Positions 17,129-60,615 of a stretch of DNA of 64,000 nucleotides are shown one piece after another (within the stretch, counting starts at the first letter, position 1; each line of letters starts with the position of its first letter). The notes below the pieces were generated by a model. That model was not told the origin of the DNA, ran no database searches, and saw nothing but the letters and a program-made list of their open reading frames with translations. The stretch is taken from assembly GCA_964387845.1 (NCBI GenBank), contig CAYLXA010000006.1, positions 135,040 through 199,039 of the forward strand, given 5' to 3'. The translations under genes and the position numbers were made by a program. This stretch comes from an uncultured bacterium (GTDB lineage Bacteria; Omnitrophota; Omnitrophia; Omnitrophales; Abzuiibacteriaceae).

Positions 17129-17146
17129 AACAACGCACCGTTTAGC

Positions 17147-39725: not shown

Positions 39726-39793
39726 ATTAAAGCGTATCCGCCGAGCTGCATCCCGCATTCATCATTATTGAGACCAAAAAGTTGGATATCAGC

Positions 39794-40642
39794 ATGTGGT
39801 TTTCGAAGCAAAAAGAAAAAGACGAGCCGCTTAAAGTACTGAAAGAAAGAGAAATTCAGGAAAAGCTTTACGGCCGCTTCCGTAAGCCGTATCCCGAAAC
39901 GGTTTCCGGCGATGCCAATTCCGGCATGCCGGAGAATCAGACGGCGACTATCACCGCGCAGCCAAAACCCGCAATTTCGATAGAGCCGCCAAAACCAAAA
40001 GAAGCAAGCCAGTCCAGGCCTTCAATTAATTCTACGTATCAAACCAAAACGTCAGCCGCGTCTGAAAGTTACCGTCAGGCCGCAATTCCGCGATCGAGCC
40101 GCTCACTCCGGATTTTGAATATTCCGGTTATGATCAAGCTTTTAGGTTTCGTCGTTTTGAGCATCGTGGTTTTCTTTGCTGCTTGGTGGTTTGCTATCCA
40201 GTTTCATCGCAGCAAGTCGCCTGTGAACGAACAGCCGGTACGCGAAGGGGTTTCAACGCTCGTGGCACCCGCGCCGCAAGCGTATTCAGGAAAGCCCTCC
40301 TCATCCGAAACGGCGTCACGGGTCGATCAAATTGAAAAAGTCGAGCCCGCATCTGGCAGTCCAAGTGCGAACGAGCCGGCACTGCCTAGCAACTTTTACT
40401 CAATTCAGATCTGTACCTACTATTCGGAATCCGATGCCAACAAATTAATCGAAGAAATGAAGGCGCTCAATATTCCTGCCTTTCACCGGACGTCGGGAAT
40501 CCGGGGATCTGATTCCAAGTTGCATATGGTGATGCTGGGTAAAGATGCCACATTCCAAGAAGCGCAAAAGCGGCTGGAGCAATTTCAAAAAACCGAAATT
40601 TCTAAAAAGTTTCTTGATGCATACGTGAGGAGGGTGTCGTAA
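39794..40642 (+). CDS. SPOR domain-containing membrane protein
   Basis: A central TM and a C-terminal 'YSIQICTYYSESDANKLIEEMKALNIPAF' SPOR-like fold. Confidence 0.5.
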   Translation: MWFSKQKEKDEPLKVLKEREIQEKLYGRFRKPYPETVSGDANSGMPENQTATITAQPKPAISIEPPKPKEASQSRPSINSTYQTKTSAASESYRQAAIPRSSRSLRILNIPVMIKLLGFVVLSIVVFFAAWWFAIQFHRSKSPVNEQPVREGVSTLVAPAPQAYSGKPSSSETASRVDQIEKVEPASGSPSANEPALPSNFYSIQICTYYSESDANKLIEEMKALNIPAFHRTSGIRGSDSKLHMVMLGKDATFQEAQKRLEQFQKTEISKKFLDAYVRRVS

Positions 40643-41004
40643 TGTGGGCGGGGCTTGAGAGCAGAAAGTTTCCTAGAGTAAAGGCGAGTTGTAAAATATT
40701 TCTTCAGCACGGATCGGACGTTCAGCCGGTGAAAGCGTCGACTGAAAATTTGGGCGCCGGCGGTCTGTGTATTTTTTTGGATCGTCCCCTCGATAAAATG
40801 TCGAACGTCAAAATAGAACTTGATTTACAAGACGGAAAAAATCCGATCCAATGTTCCGGCCGAGTGGTTTGGACGGTACGGAAGCGTTCGTTTAAGGCAG
40901 GCGAAGAGGGGCATGATATCGGAATAGAGTTTGTCAATTTGCCCGAGACGGATTTGAGCCGGATCTCCGCTCTAGTAAGCCGCACCGGCACTGCAAAAAA
41001 ATAA
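40642..41004 (+). CDS. PilZ domain protein (c-di-GMP effector)
   Basis: 'FPRVKASCKI' (RxxxR-like) and 'TENLGAGGLCI' (DxSxGG-like) boxes. 120 aa. GAGGAGGG RBS. Confidence 0.55.
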   Translation: MWAGLESRKFPRVKASCKIFLQHGSDVQPVKASTENLGAGGLCIFLDRPLDKMSNVKIELDLQDGKNPIQCSGRVVWTVRKRSFKAGEEGHDIGIEFVNLPETDLSRISALVSRTGTAKK

Positions 41005-41006
41005 CT

Positions 41007-41510
41007 ATGGGCAAAGAGTTTTCGTTCGATATTGTCTCCGAGGTTAATTTGCAAGAAGTGGACAATGCCGTGAATCAGGCCATGAAAGAAATTCTCACTC
41101 GGTTTGATTTTAAGGGCAGTAAAAGTCAGATTGCGTTTAACCGCACGGAAAAAAAAGTCCAGCTAATTGCGGATGATGAAATGAAGATGCGGAATTTACG
41201 CGATGTTCTTTCCACCCGCCTAGCGAAACGGTCGATTTCAATGAAAGCACTCGATTACGGAACCGAAGAGAAGGCGTTTGACGGCATGGTCCGCCAGGAG
41301 GCAAAACTAGTGGACGGTATTTCTCAGGAGCATGCGAAAGATATTGTCCGCCGGATCAAAGATTTTAAGCTCAAAATCCAGCCGAGCATTCAGGGCGAGA
41401 GCGTTCGAGTGACCGGGAAAAGCAAAGACGATCTACAATTTATCATGCAGCAATTGAAAGCAAGCGACCTTACCATTCCGCTCCAATTCGCAAATTTTCG
41501 CGAGCATTAA
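41007..41510 (+). CDS. yajQ: YajQ family (UPF0234) cyclic-di-GMP-binding protein
   Basis: 'FDIVSEVNLQEVDNAVNQAMKEILTRFDFKGS' matches the YajQ N-terminus. 167 aa. Confidence 0.78.
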   Translation: MGKEFSFDIVSEVNLQEVDNAVNQAMKEILTRFDFKGSKSQIAFNRTEKKVQLIADDEMKMRNLRDVLSTRLAKRSISMKALDYGTEEKAFDGMVRQEAKLVDGISQEHAKDIVRRIKDFKLKIQPSIQGESVRVTGKSKDDLQFIMQQLKASDLTIPLQFANFREH

Positions 41511-41879
41511 TCTCTTCTAAAAATCCCTGTTTTGAAGATTTTTTAACCCATCGAGATTTAACTATCTCTTTGTAACTCTATTAAATACAAGAGCTTATAC
41601 TGCGATAAAGTTAAAATAACTTTTATAAAACCGTTTATTAATAAAAAATGACCGCTTACCCCTTGCTTTCAGTAAAACACGTGTTATACTTCTAATAACA
41701 GATAAAAATAAGCGTAACATATTGAAAATTAAGAAGTTACAAGAATAAACAATCTGTATAGCAAACGCGTAGAGCAGCCGAAATATAAAGGCCCGCATTG
41801 TTAAATTAAAATTGAAAAGGAAAATTGAAAAACCATGAATTCGAATATTGAAGCAGTTGATCAACACGGGAGGCGAGAC

Positions 41880-42275
41880 ATGTCAAAGGAGCGGCGAAGG
41901 TTTAAGCGTTTCGATGCTTATATGAGCGTTAAATGTGCGGTGCCGAGCAACGAAAATGCAAAAAATTATACGGTCGGTCTCACCAGAGATTTATCTCGTG
42001 ATGGAATATGTTTGAGTACCAGCCAGCCTCTACCGAGCGGTTCGACCTTGAATATTGAAATCGATATTCCGGATGATCCGCGGCCCATCTGCACTACGGG
42101 CAAAGTGATGTGGACTAAGAATGGAAATGCTGACGAGGGTAGTAATCACGGAATACGGTTCGTCAATATTGATCCTATCGATAAGTTTCGAGTTTTGGAT
42201 TACGCTTACAACCATTGGCTTGAAACCAAAGTCAATGATTATGCGGACCCGGAGCAAGTATCTGAATTAGGCTGA
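41880..42275 (+). CDS. PilZ domain protein
   Basis: 'RRRFKRF' and 'TRDLSRDGICL' PilZ boxes. GGGAGG RBS 6 nt before the ATG at 41880. Confidence 0.55.
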   Translation: MSKERRRFKRFDAYMSVKCAVPSNENAKNYTVGLTRDLSRDGICLSTSQPLPSGSTLNIEIDIPDDPRPICTTGKVMWTKNGNADEGSNHGIRFVNIDPIDKFRVLDYAYNHWLETKVNDYADPEQVSELG

Positions 42276-42431
42276 GCAACAATCTAGTTTTGCAAAAGAG
42301 CGTCTTATCCAAAGACGCTCTTTTGTTTTCTGCATACCCCATCCTCACCCCTAAAATCCCTCTATTTCTCATCAGATCGGCCGATAAATTAGGAAAACAA
42401 TTTATCTAAATGAATTAACCTTACAATAGCC

Positions 42432-44507
42432 ATGGCACCCTTTTTTAGATTTGGCAAAGCCGCTCAGCCCAAGAAAGAATATGACATTACTCTTTTCCCG
42501 ATTTTCACGGGATTGAGCCAAGCTGAGATTAAGATGGTCGAGGAGAAAATCCGCCTCGTAGAGCTCAAGAAAGGCGAGTGCGCGTATCAGAAAGGCGAGG
42601 CGGCAAGCGCCTTTTACGTGATCTTAACCGGACGTTTTCAAATTCTTCGTGAAAACGGCGAGGTGATCAATCACTTACACCATGGTGATTATTTCGGCGA
42701 AACTTCAATCATCACGGATCATCCGCACAGCGCAACGGTTCAGGCGAAAAATGATTCGATTGTGCTCAAGATCGAAAAGAATGATTTTTTGTGGCTCTTA
42801 AAACGTATTCCGGCACTATCACTTCAAATCAGCCGCACGTTGGGGCACCGGTTAACTTCCAATATGGCCGGCGAAGAACTGGAAGGCCAATCCAAAATCC
42901 TCTCAATTTATCATGCGCAGCCGCGGATCGGTAATTCAACGTTCGCCGTCCGTTTGGCTGCATCGCTTGCATTTGAGATGAAGAAAAAAGTGATCGTGGT
43001 TGATTTGAGCCAGATTCATGCCGAAGGGCGGTCGGTTTCTCGAACCCGGCCGCATGCGCGTTCTTATTCTCTTGCGTCTCATGGTTTGCCAAGCGCGCAG
43101 TCGCTCGACCCGTTCATTCTTAAAAAAGACGGGCCTTTTGATTTTTTGAACGTCTCAAACCATGTGGAACTCGAAAAGGCCGAACGCCAGTTGGCACATT
43201 TATTGTCTTACTTGCTGTCACGCTATCACTACATCCTGATTGATTTACCAGCCGAATCATCCGGGCTCGGGCCTAAGGCTATTCAACAATCCGACTTGTT
43301 ATATTTTTTAGTGGATTCGGGCGAAAAGGAAACACAAAAGACTCAAAACATCATTTATCATTTCAAAGAGACATTCAGCCTCAACGATAACGACATCCGC
43401 TTGGTTCTGGTAGAAAGTAAGGATGCCAAAAGAATTTTTTCTTCCAATGTCGCGACTAAGCAATTTTATTCATATCCTGTTTTTGCGACACTGCCGCATG
43501 TTTCGGGAATGCCGTCGCCGAGCGAGACTAATTTAAAAGAGCCGCTTCCCGGCGATGCGGGAAAAGCTTATTCAAAGGTTATTCGGTTTTTAGCCCGTGA
43601 GGTAACCGGGACTTCGGTGGGGCTTGTGCTTGGAAGCGGCGCTGCGTTTGGTTTTGCACACATCGGTGTTTTGAAAGCGCTGGAGGAAGCAGGCATTGAA
43701 ATTGATATTTTAGGCGGATGCAGCATGGGCTCGTTGATCGGCGGTATGTGGGCGCTCGGCATCACAACGGATGAGCTGGTCAAAATTGCGACTGACCTGA
43801 ACCCGAAGAATGTTTTTTTTAAATTAATCGGGCTTCAGGACCTATCCATCGCCCACCGCGGGTTCTTTAAAGGCGACCAGGTGACGGAATTTTTGCGGGA
43901 ACACATCGGAAATGCGTCTTTTAGGGATGTGAAAGTTCCGATAAAAGTAATGGCAGCGGACTTGGCAAACGGTAATCCGGTGGTTTTAGATGAAGGGTCG
44001 CTCTTGGCGGCAATTCGCGCCAGTATTTCGATTCCCGGAATTTTCCGTCCGTTTCAGATCGGGAACCGGTATTTAATGGACGGCGGCGTGGTGGATCCGC
44101 TTCCGGTCCAGATGCTCCGGCGGTACGGCGCTAAAAAAGTAATTGCCGTGAATGTGCTGCAATCGCCGGATGACCATGCGAACCGGCTTGAAATCCTCCA
44201 GAGAAAAGATGAAAAGACAAATGAAATTATTCAAAATAAAAGCATCTTCGTCCGACATTTATATGAATACCGAAAAGACTTTATGGATAAACAAACGGCC
44301 AATATCTTCAACGTGGTCATGAAGGCCATTCAATTTATGGAGTTTGAAATGGCGGAAAATTCCGAACTGCACGCCGATGTGGTTCTGCGGCCGATCGTGA
44401 CGGATGCGCACTGGGCCGAGTTTTATCACGCGGAAAAATTTATCCGCAGGGGCGAAGACGAAACCTTGAAGGCGATGGATGAAATTAAGCGGATGATGAG
44501 CGAGTAA
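42432..44507 (+). CDS. cyclic nucleotide-binding domain / patatin-like phospholipase (NTE-like)
   Basis: An N-terminal cNMP-binding fold ('GDYFGETS') and a C-terminal patatin domain with oxyanion loop 'LGSGAAFGFAHIG', serine 'GCSMGS' and 'DGGVVDPLP' (Asp of the dyad). Confidence 0.75.
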   Translation: MAPFFRFGKAAQPKKEYDITLFPIFTGLSQAEIKMVEEKIRLVELKKGECAYQKGEAASAFYVILTGRFQILRENGEVINHLHHGDYFGETSIITDHPHSATVQAKNDSIVLKIEKNDFLWLLKRIPALSLQISRTLGHRLTSNMAGEELEGQSKILSIYHAQPRIGNSTFAVRLAASLAFEMKKKVIVVDLSQIHAEGRSVSRTRPHARSYSLASHGLPSAQSLDPFILKKDGPFDFLNVSNHVELEKAERQLAHLLSYLLSRYHYILIDLPAESSGLGPKAIQQSDLLYFLVDSGEKETQKTQNIIYHFKETFSLNDNDIRLVLVESKDAKRIFSSNVATKQFYSYPVFATLPHVSGMPSPSETNLKEPLPGDAGKAYSKVIRFLAREVTGTSVGLVLGSGAAFGFAHIGVLKALEEAGIEIDILGGCSMGSLIGGMWALGITTDELVKIATDLNPKNVFFKLIGLQDLSIAHRGFFKGDQVTEFLREHIGNASFRDVKVPIKVMAADLANGNPVVLDEGSLLAAIRASISIPGIFRPFQIGNRYLMDGGVVDPLPVQMLRRYGAKKVIAVNVLQSPDDHANRLEILQRKDEKTNEIIQNKSIFVRHLYEYRKDFMDKQTANIFNVVMKAIQFMEFEMAENSELHADVVLRPIVTDAHWAEFYHAEKFIRRGEDETLKAMDEIKRMMSE

Positions 44508-44595: not shown

Positions 44596-45786
44596 ATGAA
44601 ATCAGTAGTGATCGTTGACGGTGTCAGGACACCCCAAGGCATTCTTGGCGGGTCGCTTAAAAGTTTTACCAATCAAAAACTTGGTCAAGTGGTCGTCAAG
44701 GCGCTGCTCGAGCGTAACAAGCTTGATCCCAAACTGGTCCAGGAAGTTATTTTCGGCTGTGTCGGCCAGGCGAGCGATGCGGCGAACGTGTCGCGGGTTA
44801 TCAGCTTGATGTCCGGAATTCCCCATACCGTTCCGGCTTTTACCGTGGCGCGTAATTGCGCCTCAGGCCTTCAGGCGGTTGTTTCGGCTTATCAGATGAT
44901 TGTCTGCAATGAAGCCGATATCATTATCGCAGGGGGTGCGGAATCCATGTCGTGCGCGCCTTACGTGAACCGCGATCTCCGATTCGGTAAAAAATTACGC
45001 CACTCAACGATGATTGATTCGCTCTGGGAAGGTTTGACGGACCCGGTCTGCAAACAAATTATGGGCGAAACCGCCGAAAATCTTGTCGAGGAATTTAAAA
45101 TTACCCGGCAGGAACAGGACCAGTTCGCGGTTCAATCACACCAAAAAGCTTTCCGGGCAAACCGCGAAGGAAAATTCAAAGACGAAATTGTCAAAGTCAG
45201 CGTCCCCAAGTTTGCGGCGGGCAAAGAAATGCCGCCCGAGATTTTTTCGGAAGATGAGGGGATTAATGTCGGGCTCACCGAACAAATTTTGTCACAATAT
45301 CCCACGGTTTTCAAAGAAGGCGGCAGCGTAACGCCGGGCAATTCGTGCCCGATTTCAGACGGAGCGGCAGCGCTTTTGATCATGAGTGAAGACAAAGCAA
45401 AAGAAATGAATCTCAAGCCCCTGGGCTACATAAAGTCTTACGCGTTTGCGGGCGTCGAGCCTCAGCGGATGGGCATCGGCCCTTCGTGTGCGGCACCGAT
45501 TGCGCTTAAGCGTGCTAACTTAACACTCAAAGACATTCAATTAATGGAACTGAACGAAGCGTTCGCGGCTCAATTCATCGCTTGTGAGCGGCTGATGAAA
45601 TTTGACCGCAACATCGTAAACGTCAACGGCGGTGCCATTGCGCTCGGCCATCCGGTTGGCGCCACAGGTGCGCGTCTTTTGGTAACGCTTCTCAATGAAA
45701 TGAAACGCAAAAATTCAACCCTCGGGCTTGCAATGATGTGCGTGGGCGGCGGCCAGGGCGGTGCGATGATCGTGGAGAGAAAATAA
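44596..45786 (+). CDS. acetyl-CoA C-acyltransferase (thiolase)
   Basis: 'VARNCASGLQAV' active-site Cys region and a C-terminal 'GGGQGGAMIVE'. Confidence 0.88.
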   Translation: MKSVVIVDGVRTPQGILGGSLKSFTNQKLGQVVVKALLERNKLDPKLVQEVIFGCVGQASDAANVSRVISLMSGIPHTVPAFTVARNCASGLQAVVSAYQMIVCNEADIIIAGGAESMSCAPYVNRDLRFGKKLRHSTMIDSLWEGLTDPVCKQIMGETAENLVEEFKITRQEQDQFAVQSHQKAFRANREGKFKDEIVKVSVPKFAAGKEMPPEIFSEDEGINVGLTEQILSQYPTVFKEGGSVTPGNSCPISDGAAALLIMSEDKAKEMNLKPLGYIKSYAFAGVEPQRMGIGPSCAAPIALKRANLTLKDIQLMELNEAFAAQFIACERLMKFDRNIVNVNGGAIALGHPVGATGARLLVTLLNEMKRKNSTLGLAMMCVGGGQGGAMIVERK

Positions 45787-45787
45787 T

Positions 45788-47005
45788 ATGTATATCTACA
45801 AAGCAGGCGTTGTCGGTGCGGGAACGATGGGCGCAGGGATTGCTCAGGTCATTACGTATTCGGGCTTGCCGGTCGTGCTAAAAGACGTTAACCAGCAGCT
45901 GGTCGATCAAGGCATCAAAAAAATTAAGGCAGTCTATGAAGCCAGGGTTTCAAAAGGAAAGATGTCATCGGATGAGATGGCCAAAAAAATGAGCCTTGTG
46001 ACCGGTGCTGTTGATTGGGAATCATTCAAAGATGTCGACATCGTGATTGAAGCAGCGCCCGAAAAAATGGAGCTCAAGAAAAAAATATTCCAAGAGTTGG
46101 ATTCAATACTGCCGCAAACGGCGATTTTGGCGACCAATACCTCAGCGCTTTCGATTTCGGAACTTGGCGCAGCGACCAAGCGGCCCGGGAAAGTCATTGG
46201 TTTTCACTTTTTTTATCCGGCTCATGTCATGAAATTGATCGAAGTAATACCTGGTTTAGCAACAAGCGAGGAAACCATTAACGATTCAATCAGCTTTTCG
46301 GAATCAATCCGTAAGATTCCCGTGAAAGTCAATGAATGCGCAGGGTTTTTGGTGAACCGCGTGTTAATGCCTTATTTAAATGAAGCCGCGTTTTGCCTTC
46401 AGGAGGGCGCTGCCACGATTCAAGAAATCGACCAGGCGATCGTAAAATTCGGGCTTCCGATGGGTCCGTTTACACTCGTGGACAATCTCGGGATGGATGT
46501 GTGTTTTGATGTTGTCCAGGTCCTAATGGGTTCCTACGGCAGCCGGATGAAGCCTGCCGAAATTTGGGACTCGTTTCATCAAGCGAAAATGTTCGGGCGT
46601 AAGACCGGTGCGGGTTTTTACAGCTACGGAGAAAAGTCCGACGCCGATATCGATAAAATCGTGAAAGATGCTCAAGCTAAGTCGCCGAAAAAGAAAACCA
46701 AATTTTCCGTGGAGCGTTTGATTTATCCGATGATCAACGAGTCGGTGCTTTGCTTGGAAGAAAATGTTTCGAAAGCGGCGGATATCGATATGGCGATGGT
46801 TGCCGGAATCGGGTTCCCGCAGGATAAAGCCGGCATCCTGCATTATGCCGACGAAGTCGGGTTGGATAACGTGCTTAAAACGCTGGAAGAACTGACCAAA
46901 GAGCACGGCGAGCGTTTTTGGCCCGCGCCGCGTCTGCGCCGGATGGTCGCCGCGAATTTTCTCGGCAAAAAAACAGGGCGCGGATTTTTCGAATACTCAT
47001 CCTAA
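45788..47005 (+). CDS. 3-hydroxyacyl-CoA dehydrogenase
   Basis: 'GVVGAGTMGAGIAQV' NAD Rossmann, plus a 3HCDH C-terminal domain. Confidence 0.85.
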   Translation: MYIYKAGVVGAGTMGAGIAQVITYSGLPVVLKDVNQQLVDQGIKKIKAVYEARVSKGKMSSDEMAKKMSLVTGAVDWESFKDVDIVIEAAPEKMELKKKIFQELDSILPQTAILATNTSALSISELGAATKRPGKVIGFHFFYPAHVMKLIEVIPGLATSEETINDSISFSESIRKIPVKVNECAGFLVNRVLMPYLNEAAFCLQEGAATIQEIDQAIVKFGLPMGPFTLVDNLGMDVCFDVVQVLMGSYGSRMKPAEIWDSFHQAKMFGRKTGAGFYSYGEKSDADIDKIVKDAQAKSPKKKTKFSVERLIYPMINESVLCLEENVSKAADIDMAMVAGIGFPQDKAGILHYADEVGLDNVLKTLEELTKEHGERFWPAPRLRRMVAANFLGKKTGRGFFEYSS

Positions 47006-47021
47006 CGCGAAAGGAATACGC

Positions 47022-47807
47022 ATGGCTGACAACCAATTTGTAAAGACCAAAATGGACGAAGGTGTCCTGATCCTCACAATCGATAATCCGCCTGTCAATG
47101 TTTTAAACAAACAAACGCTTGCCGAGCTGGACAAGACAATCGCAGACGCGCAAAGCGATTCAAAAGTGAAGGTGATTGTCATCACCGGTGCAGGCTCCAT
47201 GGCATTTATTGCCGGCGCGGACATCAAAATCATTGCCAGCGTCCAATCTAAGCAGGAAGCCGTGTCGCTCGCACTTCAAGGCCAGGCGGTTTTGGATAAA
47301 ATCGAAGCTTCAAAAAAACCTGTGATTGCGGCAATCAACGCTGTTTGTTTGGGCGGCGGCAACGAATTGGCAATGGCTTGCCATATTCGCATTGCATCGG
47401 ACCGCGCGAAATTCGGACAGCCGGAGGTAAGCCTTGGTATTGTGCCGGGGTTCGGCGGGTCGCAGCGCCTTGCGCGTTATTCCGGCGTTTCGAAAGCGCT
47501 GGAGCTTTGCTTGACGGGTGATTTGATTACTGCACAAGAAGCGCTCCGGATTAATTTGATCAACCGTGTTGTTCCGGATGGCGAAGTTCTCAAGCAAGCG
47601 GTCGGTATGGCGAAACGGATTGCATCAAAAGGGCAAGTGGCTGTCCGATTAATTACGGAAGCTGTGGTAGAGGGTATTAAAAAACCGCTCTCCGAAGGGC
47701 TTAAATTGGAGGCAGAGCAGTTTGGTAAAGTCAGTGAAACGAGTGATATGAAAGAGGGTGTCCGTGCTTTCTTGGAAAAAAGACAGCCTAAATTTGAAGA
47801 TAAGTAA
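47022..47807 (+). CDS. enoyl-CoA hydratase (crotonase family)
   Basis: 'AAINAVCLGGGNELAMACHIRIAS' crotonase oxyanion-hole region. Confidence 0.85.
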   Translation: MADNQFVKTKMDEGVLILTIDNPPVNVLNKQTLAELDKTIADAQSDSKVKVIVITGAGSMAFIAGADIKIIASVQSKQEAVSLALQGQAVLDKIEASKKPVIAAINAVCLGGGNELAMACHIRIASDRAKFGQPEVSLGIVPGFGGSQRLARYSGVSKALELCLTGDLITAQEALRINLINRVVPDGEVLKQAVGMAKRIASKGQVAVRLITEAVVEGIKKPLSEGLKLEAEQFGKVSETSDMKEGVRAFLEKRQPKFEDK

Positions 47808-47852: not shown

Positions 47853-48386
47853 ATGAAGTTATTCCGCATAAAATCTATCGGTTTATCAGTCCTTGTTTTA
47901 GCTGTTTTGGCGAGCTACGGCTTCACTTTTGATTTTCAACAATGGGGCAAGAATCAGCAGGAGAATACCGCTCAAAACGGTGAACCAGCGGGTTCCGGAC
48001 AAAAAGTAGTTGCGGCTAATGTTAAAAGGCCCGTAACGCCTTCGTTGGCGCAGCCGGTGGCGGATACCGAAATTGTCGAAATCCAAAATCAGATTCAACA
48101 AATTACCGAACATACCAAAGTCGTTGAGCAGCAAAGCGCTGCAGACCGTGCCGCACTTCAAAAAGTTTTGCAGCAAGTTCAAATCCAGAAAAAGCTTGTT
48201 GATACATTGAAGGTGCCGAAACAACCGGTTCCGGGCGATGCGTTGAATACCGACGAAATTATCCGGCAGGCAAAATTGCGTCTTATTGCCGAAGATGTCC
48301 GCCGGACGCAGGAAGTGCTGCGGACGTCTAAAGTTGTTACTCCCGTTCCAAAACCTGTCCAAACAGTTAAAACCAGTGATCGGTAA
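47853..48386 (+). CDS. hypothetical secreted Gln-rich coiled-coil protein
   Basis: Signal peptide and a Q/V-rich low-complexity region. It sits inside the fatty-acid locus. Confidence 0.35.
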   Translation: MKLFRIKSIGLSVLVLAVLASYGFTFDFQQWGKNQQENTAQNGEPAGSGQKVVAANVKRPVTPSLAQPVADTEIVEIQNQIQQITEHTKVVEQQSAADRAALQKVLQQVQIQKKLVDTLKVPKQPVPGDALNTDEIIRQAKLRLIAEDVRRTQEVLRTSKVVTPVPKPVQTVKTSDR

Positions 48387-48407: not shown

Positions 48408-50252
48408 ATGTCGAACGATTTGCCTTATCAAAATTTACCCGAAATGTTTTTTGATCAGGCCGATCGCCTTCAAAACAAAACCGCTCTTCTTTCAAAAAAA
48501 GAAGGCCTCTACACGCCTATTTCGTGGCTTCAATTTAAAACGCAAGTACTCAAAGCGGTGCGCAGCTTCCAAAAGCTCGGTATCGGGTCGGGTGATTGTG
48601 TGGCGCTTCTGTCAGAAAACCGGCCTGAGTGGGCAATTACGGATCTCGCCGTACAGTCATTTGGTGCTTGCCTGGTTCCGGTGTATGCGACGAGTTCCAT
48701 TAAAGAAGTCGGTTACGTCGTGCGGCATTCTGAAGCGAAAGTGATCGTGGTATCGACGGCGGAACAATTCTGTAAAGTTCAAAGTTTTCTGATCGAATCG
48801 TCATCAGTACGCCATATCATCGTCATGGATGGACCAGCCGCATCAGATCCACGCGTACTGAATTGGGAGAGCTTTTTGGGAAGCAGTCAGGTGAGTGATT
48901 CTGAAGAAAAAGCCATTCGCCAAAACGTTGAAAAAATTCAGCCTGATCATTTGGCAACCGTCATTTACACATCCGGCACCACGGGGCCACCGAAAGGCGT
49001 CATGCTCAGCCACCGGAATTTTTTGATCAACTGTTGGGATGCAAAGCATGCAATTGATCTGCGTCCGGATGACGTCTCGCTTTCGTTTTTACCGCTCAGC
49101 CATGTATTCGAACGCACCGCAGGGTATTATTTTCCGATTATGGTCGGTTCTACTATCGCTTACGCCGAAAGTATGAATACGGTTCCTGAAAACTTGCTCG
49201 AAGTAAAACCGACAGTTGCCAGCAGCGTGCCGCGCCTTTATGAAAAAATTCACGAAAAGATAATGGATAAAATCCGGAACGCGCCGCCGCTTCGAAAAAA
49301 ACTGGCCAACTGGGCAATCAAAGTCGGTTACCGGACCGCGCCATACCGGCTTGTGCATAAAAGTTTACCGGCACTGCTTGCGATTCAATATAAAATTGCC
49401 AAACTTCTTATCTTTAATAAATTACAAAAACAACTGGGCGGCCGGATGCGGTTTTTTATTTCAGGCGGCGCACCTCTTTCAAAACAAATTGCGGAGTTCT
49501 TTTATGCAGCCGGTGTTGTGATTTTGGAGGGATATGGCCTCACCGAAACATCGCCTGTGATTGCTGTCAATCGGCTTGACCGTCTGAAATTCGGAACGGT
49601 CGGAATCCCGTTTGATCATGTTGAGGTCAGGATCGCAGATGATGGTGAAATCGCGGCACGCGGCCCTTCGATTATGAAGGGTTATTACAAAGATGATACC
49701 GCAACAAACGAAGTAATTCGGGACGGCTGGTTTTATACGGGCGATATCGGCCAAATTGATTCTGAAGGTTTTCTATCGATTACCGACCGGAAAAAAGATC
49801 TCATCGTTACATCCGGCGGCAAGAATATTGCTCCGCAAAATATTGAAAATTCACTGACGCGCCATCCGCTGATTCAGCAGGCAGTGATATTGGGAGACCG
49901 TTATAATTTTCTAACTGCCCTCATCGTGCCCAAGTTTGAAAATCTCGCAAAGCAACTCGGAAAGGATGAGGTGTCGAAGAGAGCATTGATTGCTGTGCCG
50001 GAGGCATATAGACTCATCGCAGAAGCAATCCGGGAGCAGACGCTTGAATTACCGAATTATGAAAAGGTGAAAACTTTTAGGATGTTGGACGAGGAATTTT
50101 CGCAGGAGAAAGGCGAGCTTACGCCGACACTGAAAGTGAAAAGGAAGATCGTGGCGGACCGGTACCGGCAGCTGATCGAAGAAATGTGTGCTGAAGTCGA
50201 AGAAAGAAAAAAACACGACCCTTCGTTATCAAAGGAAGTGATGGGCGGTTAA
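48408..50252 (+). CDS. long-chain fatty acid--CoA ligase (AMP-dependent synthetase)
   Basis: 'YTSGTTGPPKGV' AMP-binding motif and 'GYGLTETS'. Confidence 0.85.
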   Translation: MSNDLPYQNLPEMFFDQADRLQNKTALLSKKEGLYTPISWLQFKTQVLKAVRSFQKLGIGSGDCVALLSENRPEWAITDLAVQSFGACLVPVYATSSIKEVGYVVRHSEAKVIVVSTAEQFCKVQSFLIESSSVRHIIVMDGPAASDPRVLNWESFLGSSQVSDSEEKAIRQNVEKIQPDHLATVIYTSGTTGPPKGVMLSHRNFLINCWDAKHAIDLRPDDVSLSFLPLSHVFERTAGYYFPIMVGSTIAYAESMNTVPENLLEVKPTVASSVPRLYEKIHEKIMDKIRNAPPLRKKLANWAIKVGYRTAPYRLVHKSLPALLAIQYKIAKLLIFNKLQKQLGGRMRFFISGGAPLSKQIAEFFYAAGVVILEGYGLTETSPVIAVNRLDRLKFGTVGIPFDHVEVRIADDGEIAARGPSIMKGYYKDDTATNEVIRDGWFYTGDIGQIDSEGFLSITDRKKDLIVTSGGKNIAPQNIENSLTRHPLIQQAVILGDRYNFLTALIVPKFENLAKQLGKDEVSKRALIAVPEAYRLIAEAIREQTLELPNYEKVKTFRMLDEEFSQEKGELTPTLKVKRKIVADRYRQLIEEMCAEVEERKKHDPSLSKEVMGG

Positions 50253-51103
50253 TGAGGCAGGAAACCGGTTTTTTCGATTCGTTCGACCAAACCAAACTGT
50301 TTTACCGTTGCTGGATTTCGGAAAAACCAAATCCAAAACCATGCCTAATTCTTCATGGGTACGGCGAACATTCCCGGCGCTATGACGAGCTCGTGAGCTT
50401 TTTGCAGGATGTCCCGTATTCATTTTTTTCATTTGATTTACGCGGGCAAGGGCGTTCAGGCGGTGTTCGGGTTCATGCCGATCAATTTGAAGATTTTGTA
50501 AAGGATGCCGAAACATATCTCAATTTTCTGCAGCGAGATAAGATCTCTGTAAATCAGAAAGCGGCATTGCTCGGCCACAGTTTGGGCGGTTTGATCGCAA
50601 TCCGGCTTGCATTGCAAATTCCGAGCCGGTTTGACAAGGCAATTTTATCATCACCGTTTTTGGGTGCGCACGGCCTGGCAGCGCTCGACTTGACGTTCTG
50701 GCTTGCGGCGTTTCTCAATCAAGCAATGCCGAAATTGCAGCTTCCGGGGCCCGCAAGACCGCGGTATCTTTTTCATGACGCCGAGAAAATGAAGCAATAT
50801 CTAGCCGATACGCTGATCGAGCGCAGAATCACGGCTCGCCTCGGCTATGAATTGTTGCGCGAGTCCCGTGCGGCAGGTGAGCGGGCGGTGCATTTGCAAA
50901 TGCCGCTTCTTGTTTTGGCAAGCGGGGATGACCGGATTGTATCGCTTGAGAAAACCAAAAGCTGGTTTGAGCAAGTTTCGGCGCCCGAGAAAGAGATGAA
51001 AGTCTATCCGGATTTTTATCACGAAATTTTTCATGAAACCGGCAGGAAAGAGCCGATGACGAAAGTGAAAGAATTTCTCGAAAAAAATAATGGAGGTATG
51101 TGA
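50252..51103 (+). CDS. alpha/beta hydrolase (lysophospholipase/monoacylglycerol lipase-like)
   Basis: 'GHSLGG' nucleophile elbow and 'HGYGEH' oxyanion region. Confidence 0.72.
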   Translation: MRQETGFFDSFDQTKLFYRCWISEKPNPKPCLILHGYGEHSRRYDELVSFLQDVPYSFFSFDLRGQGRSGGVRVHADQFEDFVKDAETYLNFLQRDKISVNQKAALLGHSLGGLIAIRLALQIPSRFDKAILSSPFLGAHGLAALDLTFWLAAFLNQAMPKLQLPGPARPRYLFHDAEKMKQYLADTLIERRITARLGYELLRESRAAGERAVHLQMPLLVLASGDDRIVSLEKTKSWFEQVSAPEKEMKVYPDFYHEIFHETGRKEPMTKVKEFLEKNNGGM

Positions 51104-52422: not shown

Positions 52423-53295
52423 ATGAGCTACTACCGCATTTTAGGTTTTGATAAAGAGCCTTTTTCCACAAGCCCGGACCCTAACTTTTTTTATCTTACC
52501 CGCGAGCACGAAACGGCGCTGACCAATGTTTTAATCGAGCTCAGATTGCGCCGAGGTTTGTCGGTTGTTTTGGGGGATGTTGGAACCGGCAAAACAAGTC
52601 TTTCCCGGAAATTAGTTCAGTGCTTGCGTGAGCGGAGCGACTTTATATTTCATATTGTTTTAGATCCCTGCTTCGAGAATGAGCATCTTTTCTTAACCTC
52701 CTTAATTCGCAATTTGGGAATCGTTGTCGATCAGCCGCATGAACAAGACCGAACTCTGCTTCGGCACACGGTTTTAGACTTAAAAGAGGCTTTAGAAAAG
52801 TACCTTTATCAGAAGTGCGTTATCGAAAATAAAACAGTGGTTTTGATTGTCGACGAGGCGCAGAAGCTGAGCGAATCCTCGATGGAAATGCTGCGTGTTA
52901 TACTTAATTACGAAACCAACGAAAACAAATTGTTGCAGCTCGTCCTTTTGGGCCAAATGGAGCTTCATGCAAAAATCGTGAATATCCCGAATTTTTGCGA
53001 CCGGATTAGTTTTAAATATTCGCTCAACCCGCTGGATTTCAAGGAAACGAAAGACATGATCCGCTACCGGATCAAGCAAGCAGGCTACAACGCGCCGTCC
53101 CATCTTTTTTTAGATGATGCAATTCAGCTGATTCACAAAGTGTCGCGCGGATATCCGAGAAAAATCACGATGCTGTGCCATCGCTCGCTCAAGAAGCTTG
53201 TGATGCAAAGTAAATGGTCGGTCGACGAAAATTTGGTGCGCGAAATCGTGAATGAAGATATTCATTCCGGCTGGCTTGCGCCGACGCTGCATTAA
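52423..53295 (+). CDS. ExeA/GspA/MshM-like AAA+ ATPase (secretin-associated)
   Basis: N-terminal 'YRILGFDKEPFSTSPDPNFFYLTREHETAL' and Walker A 'GDVGTGKTSL', Walker B 'LIVDEAQ'. It lacks a C-terminal peptidoglycan-binding extension. Confidence 0.7.
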   Translation: MSYYRILGFDKEPFSTSPDPNFFYLTREHETALTNVLIELRLRRGLSVVLGDVGTGKTSLSRKLVQCLRERSDFIFHIVLDPCFENEHLFLTSLIRNLGIVVDQPHEQDRTLLRHTVLDLKEALEKYLYQKCVIENKTVVLIVDEAQKLSESSMEMLRVILNYETNENKLLQLVLLGQMELHAKIVNIPNFCDRISFKYSLNPLDFKETKDMIRYRIKQAGYNAPSHLFLDDAIQLIHKVSRGYPRKITMLCHRSLKKLVMQSKWSVDENLVREIVNEDIHSGWLAPTLH

Positions 53296-53312
53296 GGATT
53301 TTAAAATCCGAT

Positions 53313-54032
53313 ATGGGAGACGAAACACCGGAACAGCAGCTTTTAAAGCTGATTGAGCAGCCGCAAGCGAGCGGTGCTCAGCCGGCGGGGGATTCTAAAG
53401 ATCCCAAAGCGGATACAGCGGCAGCGGCAAAAGCAAAGAAAGGTCTCAATTTTAAGAGCCTGCTGACACCAAGCGGATGGAAAGGCGTTTTGTCCTATGC
53501 AAAGGAACAAGGCGCAACGCTGGCAAAGCAAAAGCCGGAAGTTTACAGTCTCCGAAGTTTTAACCGTTTTTTTCGGATCGCGCTCGGCGCCGGCGGAATA
53601 GTAATGTTTTGTTACATTGCTTATGCGGCTTACGTCATGAATAGTGAGTTTCACGAGCTGTCTGATTCGACACAAAAGGAAATGGCTGATCTGCCCATGT
53701 CGGGCGGGCGAATGTTGGATCCGAATTTTTTTGAGGATATTGCGAAACGGAATATTTTTGCACCGATGGAAAAAAAGCTGGAGCCCGAGCTTGCGCTTGA
53801 GTCTGGAGTTAGCAAAGCGGCTCTCGTTGAAATGGCAAAAGATATCAAGCTAACGGGGATTTCCGTAAATCCAACGGATGAGAGCCGCACATTTTGCATG
53901 ATCGAAGACCTTAAGAAAAACACGACAAGTTTTTTAAAAGTTGGCGACGGAATCGCCGGATTTACGATTAGCAAAATCGGTCCTGACAGCGTTGAGCTCA
54001 AATACCAAAAGGAAGCGATCGAGCTGAGATAA
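53313..54032 (+). CDS. hypothetical bitopic membrane protein, possible PilP/GspC-like secretin partner
   Basis: One TM (FFRIALGAGGIVMFCYIAYAAYVM) and a C-terminal beta-rich '...SFLKVGDGIAGFTISKIGPDSVELKY' resembling secretin-binding HR/PilP domains. It overlaps the secretin start (ATAATGA). Confidence 0.3.
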   Translation: MGDETPEQQLLKLIEQPQASGAQPAGDSKDPKADTAAAAKAKKGLNFKSLLTPSGWKGVLSYAKEQGATLAKQKPEVYSLRSFNRFFRIALGAGGIVMFCYIAYAAYVMNSEFHELSDSTQKEMADLPMSGGRMLDPNFFEDIAKRNIFAPMEKKLEPELALESGVSKAALVEMAKDIKLTGISVNPTDESRTFCMIEDLKKNTTSFLKVGDGIAGFTISKIGPDSVELKYQKEAIELR

Positions 54033-55687: not shown

Positions 55688-56691
55688 AAGAAAATAATAC
55701 CAAGTTTTTAATACAAGCACTCACCAGAATGGCTCTGATTTTATTAATCGCTACAGGCGCGGCCCGTCCCGGCTCGGCATTTTGGCCGTTTGATACCGGT
55801 GAAGAAAAACAAAGCGAAGAGTTTAGTGCTCCGACAGCCTCACTTCCGACACCCGAACAGAAAAGGGAAGAATCGCTCAAGATTGATACGATTCTAAGCA
55901 CGCTAAACGAGTCCCTGGAAGAAAACAAAAAACTCCGGACCGATGCGGAAAACGCGCAAGAGCAGCTGAACCGATCCTCAATCGAGAACAACGTACTTCG
56001 AAGCCAATTGCGCACATTGCAAGCAGAAGCCGATTCGTACAAAACCGAGCTCACCAAGCACGCAGAAGAAACAAAAAAAAACATTCAAAAGCTTGAGCAG
56101 GAAGTTGGTCGTCTTCAAATTGAGGCCAAAAAAGCAGAAGAGATGAAGGAATTTGCCGAAGAAAGCATGGCCTACACCGAAGCGGAAAATCAAAAGGTGA
56201 GAAAGCTGCTTGAACAATCTATTCTTGAAAGCGAACGGGACACATACGTGAAGCTGATTTCGGAGTCGGAGATAAAGGCGAATCGAGCTGCGGAAAAGCT
56301 GATGACAGCAAAGCGCCAGAATGAACGCATGAGATCCGAACTGGCTTCGGCTTATTATAATTTGGGCAATATGCTGGCCGGGTCGGCGCAATATCGGAGC
56401 GCTTTAACGCAATACAAAAAGGCGCTCAAACTTAACCCAAATGATGCGTGGACGCATTACAATTCGGCCATTATTTATGATTATTATTTAAACAATAAAG
56501 AAAAATCGCTCGCACACTACAAGAAATATTTAAGCTTAGAACCTGCTGAAAAAGAGATCAATAAAGTGCGCGAGCGCGTTTTAGAAATGGAATTACTGAA
56601 TCCTGTCACGCCCGGCCAGCCGCTCAAGTCTGATTTTGACAAATATCAAAAGGATTTGAACAAGCCCTACGTCATCAAGGCAAACGGTTAA
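55684..56691 (+). CDS. secreted coiled-coil / TPR-repeat protein (MshN-like position)
   Basis: Signal peptide, a long E/K/Q-rich coiled coil, and C-terminal TPRs ('AYYNLGNMLAGSAQYRSALTQYKKALKLNPNDAWTHYNSAIIY'). ATGA overlap with the secretin gene. Confidence 0.5.
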   Translation: MKENNTKFLIQALTRMALILLIATGAARPGSAFWPFDTGEEKQSEEFSAPTASLPTPEQKREESLKIDTILSTLNESLEENKKLRTDAENAQEQLNRSSIENNVLRSQLRTLQAEADSYKTELTKHAEETKKNIQKLEQEVGRLQIEAKKAEEMKEFAEESMAYTEAENQKVRKLLEQSILESERDTYVKLISESEIKANRAAEKLMTAKRQNERMRSELASAYYNLGNMLAGSAQYRSALTQYKKALKLNPNDAWTHYNSAIIYDYYLNNKEKSLAHYKKYLSLEPAEKEINKVRERVLEMELLNPVTPGQPLKSDFDKYQKDLNKPYVIKANG

Positions 56692-56801: not shown

Positions 56802-56938
56802 TTTTTTGTTGTCCCATAACCCTAAATTAAACTGCTGAATTAACATATGGCGATTGGGAAATTTCTGACTTGAAAAAGGCAAACCTGCCGAAAGGCGGGG
56901 ACGCAAAACCGAAGTTCTAAATCTCATCAAGGAGAGAC

Positions 56939-60408: not shown

Positions 60409-60615
60409 ATTTTTTTAGAAAACCCCGGCCTTTAGCTTTGGAGAGGGTTGAAGGCAGGATGGAAAGTAAAAAAATCGTAACCTCTGGCCCCAGTCCGGAG
60501 GAAGCGAAAGCAAGACCCAATTGACACCGGCTTTGGAGAGGAGGCGTTTAAAAACGCTTTGAGTAGTCGTCCCAGTTTAAAAAGGAAAATTATAGGTCGT
60601 CCCAATAACGCCTGG

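Follow-up and report, generated by a model that had tools for sequence, protein, structure and literature searches.

A three-domain patatin lipase beside PilZ and YajQ genes in Candidatus Omnitrophota: probably separable gene units on the core chromosome

Do two PilZ genes, a YajQ gene and a lipase gene that lie side by side in an Omnitrophota genome form one second-messenger system, or are they merely neighbours? The question arises at 40642..44507 of the 64,000-nt window (the whole stretch of DNA analysed; all features located below between 39782 and 51103 lie on the plus strand). A sequence-only reading had described these genes as a cyclic-nucleotide effector island acting in nucleotide-gated membrane-lipid remodelling. 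The PilZ-YajQ-PilZ and cNMP-binding/patatin reading frames are real and were confirmed by Pfam and NCBIfam, but the region shows no shift in base composition and the locus is a conserved, syntenic stretch of the Candidatus Omnitrophota core chromosome, so the term island does not apply. The reading that we consider moderately probable is that of three neighbouring, separable units, the third of which would serve (phospho)glycerolipid catabolism and be headed by a soluble three-domain enzyme.

The lipase is a 691-aa protein encoded at 42432..44507 (Pfam cNMP_binding, 72.6 bits; Patatin, 114.5 bits), and at least 120 full-length relatives of it were found, those bearing names being Omnitrophica/Omnitrophota. 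It had been taken for a fusion of two domains with intact lipase motifs; both domains and the motifs are present, but a third domain of ~240 residues in the middle (aa 152-392), which is ParA/MinD-like, had been overlooked. The AF2 single-chain model of the protein has a pLDDT of 87.4 and a pTM of 0.84, and hydropathy analysis revealed no membrane segment besides the buried catalytic strand. The N-terminal domain (aa ~20-145; 42489..42866), to which the cNMP_binding match belongs, has the cyclic-nucleotide-binding (CNB) fold. Its phosphate-binding cassette, F88-G-E90 ... P-H99-S-A-T, is preserved in part: the G-E and S-A residues are kept and the Arg is replaced by His. H99 aligns with the cassette Arg of three functional PKG domains, and His occupies this position in 115 of 116 relatives; the Arg persists (RRSA) in full-length relatives that are more distant and bear the label Chloroflexota. 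With a conserved His in place of the Arg that clamps the phosphate, the sensor domain probably does not bind its ligand in the way that is canonical for cAMP or cGMP. Strong selection nevertheless acts on G-E and S-A, which leaves room for a ribose-phosphate ligand in the domain; conceivably a protonated His could hold even a cyclic nucleotide.

The middle domain (aa ~152-392; 42885..43607) is the relic of a ParA/MinD-type P-loop domain, scoring 26.2 bits with Pfam AAA_31, just under the cut-off of 27. Its Walker A motif reads P-R-I-G-N-S-T and has lost the lysine; GK[ST] is kept in 10 and lost in 106 of the 116 lipase relatives. The family profile matched the ParA-family ATPase 3ea0 over its full length (E = 2e-17) and Soj/MinD at 1e-9 to 1e-6, and most of the proteins in which an exhaustive search located the domain are ~640-700 aa long and carry it at residues ~150-390. 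The decayed domain probably acts as a scaffold or dimerisation module. The C-terminal domain (aa ~396-690; 43617..44504) is a Patatin/RssA-like phospholipase domain, which accounts for the 114.5-bit Patatin match. The oxyanion loop (G401-x-G403-x-x-x-G407), the nucleophile motif (G429-x-S431-x-G433, with Ser431) and D550-G551-G552 (with Asp550) are all intact, and these catalytic motifs are essentially invariant among the 116 relatives. The NCBIfam RssA model was matched across its whole length at 155 bits, below its cut-off of 272, and the closest solved structure to the domain is PlpD (5fya; 30% identity, target-normalised TM-score 0.83).

As had been stated earlier, the lipase gene lies directly upstream of genes for fatty-acid catabolism. 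Using Pfam and NCBIfam, we identified an acetyl-CoA C-acyltransferase (thiolase; 44596-45786), a FadB/FadJ-type 3-hydroxyacyl-CoA dehydrogenase (HADH; 45788-47005), which over its full length matches FadJ positions 309-701, and an enoyl-CoA hydratase (ECH; 47022-47807), the three beta-oxidation genes together spanning 44596..47807; the gap between lipase and thiolase contains no hairpin terminator. These are followed by a gene for a 177-aa protein with an N-terminal hydrophobic anchor or signal (47853..48386), which has no match in Pfam, NCBIfam or PADLOC and whose position is conserved, being occupied in all relatives by an unannotated ORF of 153-219 aa. A long-chain fatty-acid--CoA ligase (48408-50252; Pfam AMP-binding, 278.9 bits) then overlaps, at a TAATG junction, with an alpha/beta hydrolase of the Hydrolase_4, lysophospholipase-L2-like type (50252-51103; Pfam Hydrolase_4, 213.5 bits); the best NCBIfam names for this pair, FadD11 or long-chain-fatty-acid--CoA ligase and lysophospholipase L2, all scored below their cut-offs. 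Operon structure in the locus is further supported by ATGA-type junctions. In relatives, genes for glycerol kinase (glpK), a glycerophosphodiesterase (GDPD) and an electron-transfer flavoprotein (ETF) are inserted beside the lipase. The glpK assignment exceeds the NCBIfam equivalog cut-off (651.8 bits versus 590), and GDPD, which adjoins the lipase in locus L086, owes its name to Pfam and to an NCBIfam match below threshold.

Because these neighbours (glpK, GDPD, acyl-CoA ligase, the beta-oxidation enzymes, ETF and the lysophospholipase-like hydrolase) indicate (phospho)glycerolipid catabolism rather than membrane remodelling, the remodelling proposed earlier finds no backing here, and the lipase is most likely the first gene of a cluster for phospholipid breakdown. 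In such a pathway the patatin domain would strip acyl chains off phospholipids or lysophospholipids, deacylation would be completed by the Hydrolase_4 enzyme, the glycerol backbone would be handled, in relatives, by GDPD and glycerol kinase, and the fatty acids would be burned by the acyl-CoA ligase, ECH, HADH and thiolase, with the lipase presumably gated allosterically by a ligand of its N-terminal domain. Among the genes of the window's cluster we saw none for an acyl-CoA dehydrogenase, and the thiolase/HADH/ECH set could also serve short-chain (butyrate-type) metabolism.

Upstream, a SPOR-domain membrane protein (peptidoglycan-binding domain, Pfam SPOR, 28.1 bits; a single hydrophobic segment at aa 114-134) is encoded at 39782..40642, and its stop codon overlaps the start of the first PilZ gene (GTAATG). 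The SPOR gene precedes this PilZ gene in 9/9 relatives looked up and is likely the first gene of the unit. The PilZ gene (PilZ1; 40642..41004) encodes a stand-alone PilZ-domain protein of 120 aa (Pfam PilZ, 56.5 bits; cut-off 22.5), and 2 nt past its stop begins the gene for a 167-aa YajQ/DUF520 family protein (41007..41510; DUF520, 210 bits; NCBIfam NF003819, 204.8 bits; cut-off 146). Judging from these junctions, PilZ1 and YajQ appear to be translationally coupled to the SPOR gene, and the three would make up the first unit. When the PilZ motifs were aligned, PilZ1 was found to have RxxxR (R8-K-F-P-R12; R-x-F-P-R in 9/9 orthologues) but not the Ser of DxSxxG, in place of which the second motif, N-L-G-A-G-G, has Gly; all nine orthologues read N-[LIV]-G-x-G-G. 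The YajQ assignment is sound, but the suggestion of c-di-GMP binding does not extend to the family as a whole, the YajQ proteins of E. coli, Clostridium and B. cereus preferring ATP/GTP (PMC4199771).

The second PilZ protein, likewise stand-alone (PilZ2; 131 aa; 41880..42275; Pfam PilZ, 54.5 bits) carries both motifs in canonical form (RRRFKR and D-L-S-R-D-G). Its ORF spans 41835-42275; since a GGGAGG Shine-Dalgarno sequence stands in front of M16 at 41880, and the gene callers and the ~130-aa homologues agree, this is almost certainly the true start. In the best 120 of 437 matching protein clusters, the named ones being Omnitrophota, RxxxR was found in 119/120 and [DN]xSxxG in 120/120, and the C-terminal tail (IDPxDKFRVLDYAYNHWLETKVNDxADPE) is highly conserved. 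Within one and the same set of relatives, identity is higher for PilZ2 (55-65%) than for the lipase (36-50%). PilZ2 is the most credible c-di-GMP receptor among PilZ1, YajQ and PilZ2. A sigma-70-like promoter candidate (TTGCTT, 16 nt, then TGT-TATACT; 41663..41690) sits upstream in an intergenic region of 31% G+C; the block is conserved in an alignment of the window with L082 and L083, and a TTG...TGnTATACT element occurs 106-273 nt upstream of PilZ2 in 5/12 loci. The gene is followed by an intrinsic terminator (42293..42331) with a 14-bp stem (CAAAAGAGCGTCTT / AAGACGCTCTTTTG), a 5-nt loop and a TTTTCT tail. The RNA fold of 42270-42435 has a z-score of -4.0, with 0/200 shuffles folding as well, and equivalent hairpins stand 3' of PilZ2 in L082 and L004. 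Where glpK comes next, no terminator hairpin follows PilZ2 and the gaps are 17-128 nt; in those loci the lipid operon may begin with PilZ2. In this window, with its own promoter-like site and strong terminator, PilZ2 would stand alone as the second unit, and the four genes do not appear to form one transcription unit. Between terminator and lipase lies a conserved GCCGATAA motif (42380..42387), at a distance of 51 nt from the lipase start; 8/14 loci have it 16-100 nt ahead of their lipase gene, against a background of 11 copies of the 7-mer CCGATAA per 128 kb (window, both strands). Candidates for its role are a -10-like element and an operator.

Gene order was compared across relatives. The block from LepA to the hydrolase, 17 kb including lepA and lepB, is collinear in 9/9 relatives looked up, across which lipase identity is 36-81%, and all share the order lepA-lepB-SPOR-small-GNAT-SPOR-PilZ-YajQ-PilZ-[glpK +/- GDPD]-lipase-[thiolase-HADH-ECH +/- ETFab]-small-ACS-Hydrolase_4; L001, L002 and L004 have the identical order as far as their contigs extend. 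The PilZ/YajQ/PilZ/lipase arrangement was found again in every orthologous locus examined, which is more than chance, and the PilZ genes adjoin the lipase in all of them. After rearrangement, the lipid genes track the lipase: L003 keeps a lipase-HADH-ECH-ACS order while unrelated genes part the PilZ genes from the lipase, L010 has thiolase, ECH and HADH 3 kb downstream of the lipase, and L012 has ECH-HADH followed by a ParA-patatin protein without the sensor domain. In the rearranged L005, three stand-alone PilZ genes lie upstream without an intervening YajQ or SPOR gene, and the last abuts the lipase. L006-L009, a deeper branch of the lipase family (30-33% identity), have neither lipid nor PilZ neighbours, and PilZ is absent within 6 kb in L006-L013.

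How far do these data allow an integrated module, in which PilZ2, perhaps together with PilZ1 or YajQ, serves as c-di-GMP receptor, docks on the lipase (for example on its ParA-like domain) and together with the sensor ligand gates lipid hydrolysis, the four genes being one functional system? The canonical PilZ2 motifs, its conservation in excess of that of the lipase, a near-invariant tail that resembles a partner-binding surface, the constant PilZ-lipase adjacency, retained even in L005, and the missing terminator in front of glpK would all fit. The organism also uses c-di-GMP, as a c-di-GMP-I riboswitch at 56868-56958 of the window indicates; the GAF/HD-GYP protein at 2288-3955, which had been mentioned along with the locus, is real but lies 38 kb away and has FLIDAGHL (I-D for H-D) where active enzymes have LLHDIGKL. 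Against the module, however, a strong terminator parts PilZ2 from the lipase in the window, L082 and L004, L006-L013 do without PilZ nearby, and in L003 the lipid genes stayed with the lipase when the PilZ genes did not. Moreover, collinearity extends over the whole block, lepA and lepB included, so adjacency is expected by inheritance alone and does not demonstrate functional coupling; it may be simply inherited gene order, and gene order is the only tie between the lipase and the neighbouring c-di-GMP-type proteins. We regard the module as unlikely.

Separable units also account better for the locus than two readings of the lipase by itself. Disfavoured and very improbable is a role in anti-phage defence by abortive infection, as played by CBASS CapV/CapE or Pycsar effectors, in which a cyclic-nucleotide alarm would switch on a membrane-destroying patatin lipase. 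PADLOC does link the N-terminal domain to the cNMP-binding domains of Pycsar TIR effectors (53-56 bits) and, weakly, the patatin part to phospholipase effectors of CBASS, and CapV and CapE are among the structural matches, but these are generic domain similarities (NCBIfam CBASS_lipase, 24 bits against a cut-off of 200), no cyclase was found in the scanned window ORFs or called in the neighbourhoods of the 9 relatives looked up, and the fixed core-genome position beside housekeeping and lipid-catabolic genes, with its flat base composition, is unlike that of mobile defence islands. Rather improbable, too, is an NTE/PNPLA6-like housekeeping enzyme that, controlled by cAMP or cGMP, would turn over endogenous phospholipids to keep the membrane lipids in homeostasis or to remodel them, and not for nutritional catabolism. 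The NTE-type architecture noted earlier holds as a loose analogy: NTE has three sensor domains and a membrane anchor, whereas the protein here has one CNB domain, no anchor and an extra ParA-like domain. In addition, the cassette Arg is replaced, the conserved partners (acyl-CoA ligase, beta-oxidation, ETF, glpK) are catabolic, and no acyltransferase or reacylation gene lies nearby. What speaks for it is the CNB fold N-terminal to an NTE/RssA-type patatin domain, the JGI label of relatives ('NTE family protein'), the soluble cytoplasmic nature of the protein, to which inner-leaflet lipids would be the nearest substrate, and the GDPD-lipase pair in L086, which echoes the eukaryotic NTE-to-glycerophosphodiesterase route.

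The sequence-only reading had described four genes as a cyclic-nucleotide effector island (40642-44507). All four were present as co-directional open reading frames, and Pfam assigned their domains: a PilZ protein (PilZ1, 40642-41004), a YajQ protein (41007-41510), a second PilZ protein (PilZ2, 41880-42275) and a 691-aa cNMP-binding/patatin protein (42432-44507), referred to here as the lipase. The lipid-catabolism genes that had been reported downstream of the lipase were likewise recovered by Pfam and NCBIfam searches, namely thiolase, FadB/FadJ-type 3-hydroxyacyl-CoA dehydrogenase (HADH), enoyl-CoA hydratase (ECH), a long-chain-type acyl-CoA ligase (ACS) and an enzyme resembling Hydrolase_4 proteins and lysophospholipases (Hydrolase_4). 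While the observation was borne out, the interpretation held only in part: proteins of c-di-GMP type physically adjoin the lipase, and the locus is a conserved lipid-catabolic locus. The lipase has at least 120 full-length relatives (34-81% identity), those with names belonging to Candidatus Omnitrophica/Omnitrophota, and their existing annotation is only 'patatin-like phospholipase family protein' or 'NTE family protein'. The nine relatives compared for synteny (36-81% lipase identity) all shared the order lepA-lepB-SPOR-small basic protein-GNAT-SPOR-PilZ-YajQ-PilZ-[glpK, +/- GDPD]-lipase-[thiolase-HADH-ECH, +/- ETF alpha/beta]-small protein-ACS-Hydrolase_4, and the loci L001, L002 and L004 had the same order as far as their contigs extend. 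A genomic island was rejected on account of the flat base composition and because the locus keeps its collinearity with lepA and lepB in every relative. Given this base composition and the ordinary chromosomal genes elsewhere in the window (mur/ftsQ/ftsA, glycine cleavage system, uvrD, trpA, ruvX, lepA and lepB), the region belongs to the core chromosome.

The patatin domain of the lipase matched PF01734 with 114.5 bits (cut-off 27.7). Among 116 relatives, the patatin-motif glycines were retained almost without exception (G401 and G403 in 115/116, G407 in 116/116, G552 in 114/116), and S431, G433, D550 and G551, which make up the GxSxG nucleophile and the D-G-[AG] aspartate, were found in every one. 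With the profile match, the Gly-rich oxyanion loop, GxSxG and DGG all present, the lipase catalytic motifs are intact, as had been proposed. The AlphaFold model of the protein was of good quality (pLDDT 87.4, pTM 0.84), and the closest solved structure to its patatin part was PlpD of P. aeruginosa (5fya; 30% identity, target-normalised TM-score 0.83). The C-terminal 300 residues of the lipase aligned with positions 5-297 of the 301 in the RssA/YchK model NF007623 at 155 bits, below its equivalog cut-off of 272. Hydropathy analysis of the lipase revealed no membrane anchor, the sole hydrophobic segment being a strand of the catalytic core.

At the N-terminus, the CNB domain matched PF00027 (cNMP_binding; 72.6 bits, cut-off 27.5), and its best solved relatives were the regulatory domains of PKG and PKA. 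The phosphate-binding cassette was strongly conserved among the 116 relatives (F88 and E90 in 116/116, G89 in 113/116, S100 in 110/116 and A101 in 99/116), which implies that the domain is still able to take a ligand. However, the residue that aligned with the cassette arginine of three functional PKG domains was His99, and position 99 was histidine in 115 of the 116 relatives. The cNMP-binding domain that had been read from the sequence was accordingly upheld with respect to the profile match, the Gly-Glu pair and [ST]-Ala, but not with respect to the phosphate-clamping arginine, and this change argues against canonical cAMP or cGMP binding. Histidine recurred in more remote loci with Omnitrophota, Planctomycetes or Verrucomicrobia labels, the two loci labelled Chloroflexota (L014 and L017; full-length relatives of 25% identity) carried a canonical RRSA cassette with arginine, and some Omnitrophota relatives lacked the sensor domain. 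The fixed cassette histidine appears to be a new feature. A cyclic-nucleotide fold that keeps every cassette residue but the arginine is one case of repurposing in the lipase.

Between the sensor and the patatin domain lies a middle domain (residues ~152-392) that matched Pfam AAA_31 below threshold. When a profile built from 16 relatives was searched against the PDB, it matched the ParA-family ATPase 3ea0 over query positions 7-233 (E = 2e-17), and Soj and MinD with E = 1e-9 to 1e-6. The Walker A site in the window reads R-I-G-N-S-T, having lost the lysine; GK[ST] was lost in 106/116 relatives and only 10/116 still carried G-x-G-K-[ST]-T, indicating a decayed P-loop domain in most lineages. 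When 1.84 billion cluster representatives were searched exhaustively, the middle domain turned up in only 83, mostly proteins of ~640-700 aa in which it occupies residues ~150-390. The likeness to ParA/MinD/TadZ-type deviant P-loop ATPases (3ea0, Soj, MinD) is a whole-domain profile match; these are free-standing positioning ATPases, whereas the domain described here is internal to an enzyme and without the Walker A lysine. Most plausibly, the relic acts as a scaffold or in dimerisation, and a ParA-derived middle domain in a cNMP-binding/patatin fusion appears to be new. It is a second case of repurposing, in which a ParA/MinD ATPase without its P-loop is retained as an internal module.

The NTE-type architecture attributed to the lipase holds only as a loose likeness of domain order: as in PNPLA6/7, Drosophila SWS and yeast Nte1, a CNB fold precedes a (lyso)phospholipase of patatin type that uses a Ser-Asp dyad. 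In relatives the lipase also has GDPD beside it, which resembles the route that leads from phospholipid through NTE and GDPD to glycerol-3-phosphate. In contrast to NTE, which has three tandem CNB domains and an N-terminal transmembrane anchor, the lipase has one CNB domain and no anchor, and it differs further in its interposed ParA/MinD-type domain, in the arginine-to-histidine change of the cassette and in its beta-oxidation cluster context. Unlike RssA, which consists of patatin only, and PlpD, which belongs to the secreted type Vd autotransporters, the patatin domain of the lipase is joined to two regulatory domains that are cytoplasmic. By comparison with these enzymes, the lipase would work like NTE/RssA-type patatin hydrolases while falling outside both NTE proper and the RssA equivalog. 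Fusions of cNMP-binding and patatin domains are already annotated in bacteria; M. tuberculosis Rv2565 is one, and fusions of this type share the two end domains of the lipase. Rv2565 is listed as an esterase (PMC10865251). The full-length relatives in the two loci labelled Chloroflexota place the fusion beyond Omnitrophota as well. What appears to set the Omnitrophota clade apart from such bacterial fusions is the conserved arginine-to-histidine change and a longer, recognisably ParA-derived middle domain.

Both PilZ proteins scored well above the PF07238 cut-off of 22.5 bits (PilZ1, 120 aa, 56.5 bits; PilZ2, 54.5 bits). The PilZ2 reading frame spans 41835-42275, and its start is almost certainly M16 at 41880, on which a GGGAGG Shine-Dalgarno sequence, the gene callers and the ~130-aa homologues agree. 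On careful alignment, the RxxxR and DxSxxG residues were both canonical in PilZ2 (RRRFKR and D-L-S-R-D-G), while PilZ1 had RxxxR (R-K-F-P-R; 9/9 orthologues) but not the serine of the second motif, which reads N-L-G-A-G-G and conforms to N-[LIV]-G-x-G-G in 9/9 orthologues. The serine of [D/N]xSxxG contacts the ligand, and its replacement by glycine makes c-di-GMP binding by PilZ1 uncertain. Among the best 120 of 437 protein clusters that matched PilZ2, RxxxR was found in 119 and [DN]xSxxG in all 120, and across the same relatives PilZ2 was conserved more than the lipase. The C-terminal ~35 residues of PilZ2 (IDPxDKFRVLDYAYNHWLETKVNDxADPE) were near-invariant in 120 homologues and more conserved than the PilZ barrel, a pattern that suggests a conserved binding partner. 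Like the characterised stand-alone PilZ receptors bearing YcgR-type motifs, PilZ2 combines the PilZ barrel with RRxxxR and DxSxxG; the differences are the serine-free N-x-G-x-G-G of PilZ1 and the lineage-specific C-terminal tail of PilZ2.

YajQ was a full-length family member (DUF520, 210 bits; NCBIfam NF003819, 204.8 bits against a cut-off of 146) and shares its full-length DUF520 likeness with the c-di-GMP effectors Xanthomonas XC_3703, P. aeruginosa PA4395, Lysobacter YajQ and Salmonella STM0435. These effectors act through LysR-type regulators, none of which is near the window yajQ; in further contrast to them, yajQ is translationally coupled here to PilZ and SPOR genes. We know of no diagnostic sequence motif for the c-di-GMP-binding, XC_3703-like subgroup. 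YajQ proteins of E. coli, Clostridium and B. cereus preferred ATP/GTP, and c-di-GMP binding is a property of a subgroup (PMC4199771). Hence, the family name by itself does not make the protein a receptor, and of the proposal of a YajQ-type c-di-GMP receptor only the family membership stands. The space between YajQ and PilZ2 contains only AT-rich non-coding DNA in the window; an extra 81-86-aa ORF with a faint STI1-HOP_DP match occupies this place in three relatives (L084, 5085-5345; L085, 5389-5637; L086, 4751-4996), and L084 has a YjbQ/UPF0047 gene there as well (5443-5859).

Gene junctions and intergenic sequences were then considered. The SPOR gene (39782-40642) ends in a stop codon that overlaps the start of PilZ1, and 2 nt separate PilZ1 from YajQ. 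The AT-rich 325-nt gap 3' of YajQ contains a block conserved in three loci, consisting of TTGCTT, 16 nt and TGT-TATACT (41663-41690), and this promoter-like element was found upstream of PilZ2 in 5/12 loci. Directly 3' of PilZ2 is a hairpin (42293-42331) with a 14-bp stem and a T-tail (fold z = -4.0); equivalent hairpins follow PilZ2 in L082 and L004 and are absent where glpK follows PilZ2. The hairpin was identified by reading and folding the gap, as a consensus promoter/terminator scan, which gave no excess over shuffled sequence, had missed it. No terminator was found between the lipase and thiolase, and Rfam searches of the 325-nt and 156-nt gaps flanking PilZ2 yielded no riboswitch or known RNA, only sub-threshold noise. 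Taken together, the SPOR/PilZ1/YajQ junctions, the promoter-like site and hairpin of PilZ2 and the lack of a lipase-thiolase terminator suggest that the window 'island' is most simply three units: SPOR-PilZ1-YajQ, PilZ2 alone, and the lipase with the lipid-catabolic genes. In addition, 8/14 loci (window, L082, L083, L004, L085, L087, L088 and L002) carried the motif (T)GCCGATAA(A/T), which is at 42380-42387 in the window, at a distance of 16-100 nt ahead of the lipase start, far above the background of 11 CCGATAA copies per 128 kb. The GCCGATAA motif is a candidate for either an operator or a promoter element.

The genes that vary across relatives, glpK, GDPD (glycerophosphodiesterase) and the ETF genes, are all lipid-related and all adjoin the lipase; the glycerol kinase in relatives scored above its NCBIfam equivalog cut-off. 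After rearrangement, L003 kept lipase-HADH-ECH-ACS together, L010 has beta-oxidation genes 3 kb downstream of the lipase, and in L012 ECH-HADH directly precede a form of the enzyme that lacks the sensor domain. In the best-supported reading, a soluble, allosterically gated (lyso)phospholipase would feed the co-encoded pathway, whereby the Hydrolase_4 enzyme would complete deacylation, the glycerol backbone would be processed in relatives by GDPD and glycerol kinase, and the fatty acids would be oxidised by ACS, ECH, HADH and thiolase. Thiolase, HADH and ECH could instead form a butyrate-type short-chain pathway, but this is less likely because the HADH is of the long FadB/FadJ type and its partners are a long-chain-type CoA ligase, the lipase and glpK. 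A 153-219-aa ORF that has a hydrophobic anchor at its N-terminus and matches no family (47853-48386, and in the same place in L082-L089) always lies between the beta-oxidation genes and ACS and may be a component of the lipid cluster.

Whether c-di-GMP reaches the lipase is a separate matter from lipid breakdown itself. Coupling of c-di-GMP to the lipase through PilZ2 would be in keeping with the canonical motifs and conserved tail of PilZ2, and in L005, which has three PilZ genes upstream and no YajQ, one PilZ gene abuts the lipase. In L003, however, unrelated genes lie between the PilZ genes and the lipase, L006-L013 have no PilZ within 6 kb of it, and a deeper branch of the lipase family is located among unrelated genes (L007). 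We consider such coupling unlikely; the case for it is adjacency within a block that is collinear anyway. A more elaborate and so far undescribed joint design, in which the CNB fold, re-tuned by the arginine-to-histidine change to a ligand other than cAMP/cGMP, and PilZ2 gate the lipase and switch on membrane-lipid breakdown, the phylum-specific PilZ2 docking in a c-di-GMP-dependent manner on the decayed ParA-like domain, is more improbable still. If true, c-di-GMP would for the first time be tied directly to lipid catabolism, and there would be a handle on how these cells feed on the lipid of host or dead cells. A defence effector of CBASS CapV or Pycsar type was also considered and rejected, given a CBASS_lipase score of 24 bits against 200, PADLOC matches at domain level only and the core-genome synteny. 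The scanned window ORFs yielded no nucleotide cyclase to go with such an effector, and none is called near the locus in the nine looked-up relatives. The locus cautions against reading adjacent signalling domains as one system where a genome is strongly collinear; for c-di-GMP research, it offers a phylum-wide, highly conserved stand-alone PilZ2 and a PilZ-YajQ pair coupled to a SPOR-domain (peptidoglycan-binding) gene.

Omnitrophota are ultra-small, possibly host-dependent bacteria, and membrane lipid is a plausible carbon and energy source for such tiny cells. Lipase, hydrolase, GDPD, glycerol kinase, ACS and the beta-oxidation cluster would together give this uncultured phylum a carbon and energy source that can be tested. 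The conserved lipid-catabolic context across the phylum is new: our literature search found no paper on the lipase family or on a lipid-catabolic locus in Omnitrophota, the matches being incidental, and in no paper found were the ParA-derived middle domain, the fixed cassette histidine or the lipid context described. The main survey of the phylum does not discuss lipid catabolism (PMC10066038).

Elsewhere in the window, a c-di-GMP-I riboswitch was detected at 56868-56958 (+) (Rfam RF01051; 76.4 bits, gathering score 35), which shows that the organism uses c-di-GMP. It directly precedes two ORFs (56939-58726 and 58612-60408) that encode paralogous ~595-aa proteins, each with a weak FGE-sulfatase-like domain, and the function under its control is probably extracytoplasmic. 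The riboswitch is closely preceded by a small secretion or pilus-type cluster (52423-56691, +), which comprises genes for an AAA_22 (ExeA-like) ATPase, a secretin and a TPR protein, with an unannotated ORF between the ATPase and the secretin. At 2288-3955 (+), the GAF/HD-GYP phosphodiesterase of the sequence-only reading retained its GAF and HD_5 domains and HHERYDGKGYP; however, its H-D dyad is I-D, and the presence of FLIDAGHL where the active enzymes V-cGAP3 and PA4781 have LLHDIGKL makes phosphodiesterase activity doubtful. The protein is possibly a catalytically dead, receptor-type HD-GYP and, located 38 kb from the PilZ/YajQ/lipase locus, has no bearing on it. A cell-wall/division cluster extends over 5507-18385, from murE to ftsQ (16289-17128) and ftsA (17147-18385); within the window, where murE, ftsQ and ftsA were scanned, ftsZ was not in its usual place after ftsA, gcvT being directly next (18452). 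Finally, opposite a minus-strand ORF at 63081-63995 that is probably spurious, an ORF of at least 1173 aa runs from ~60481 to 64000 (+) and past the window end, and it is composed of 13-aa repeats that follow the pattern G-[VI]-N-W-x-D-[IL]-x-x-L-S-K-[AS]; each repeat takes up 39 nt, and many are paired into 78-nt units.
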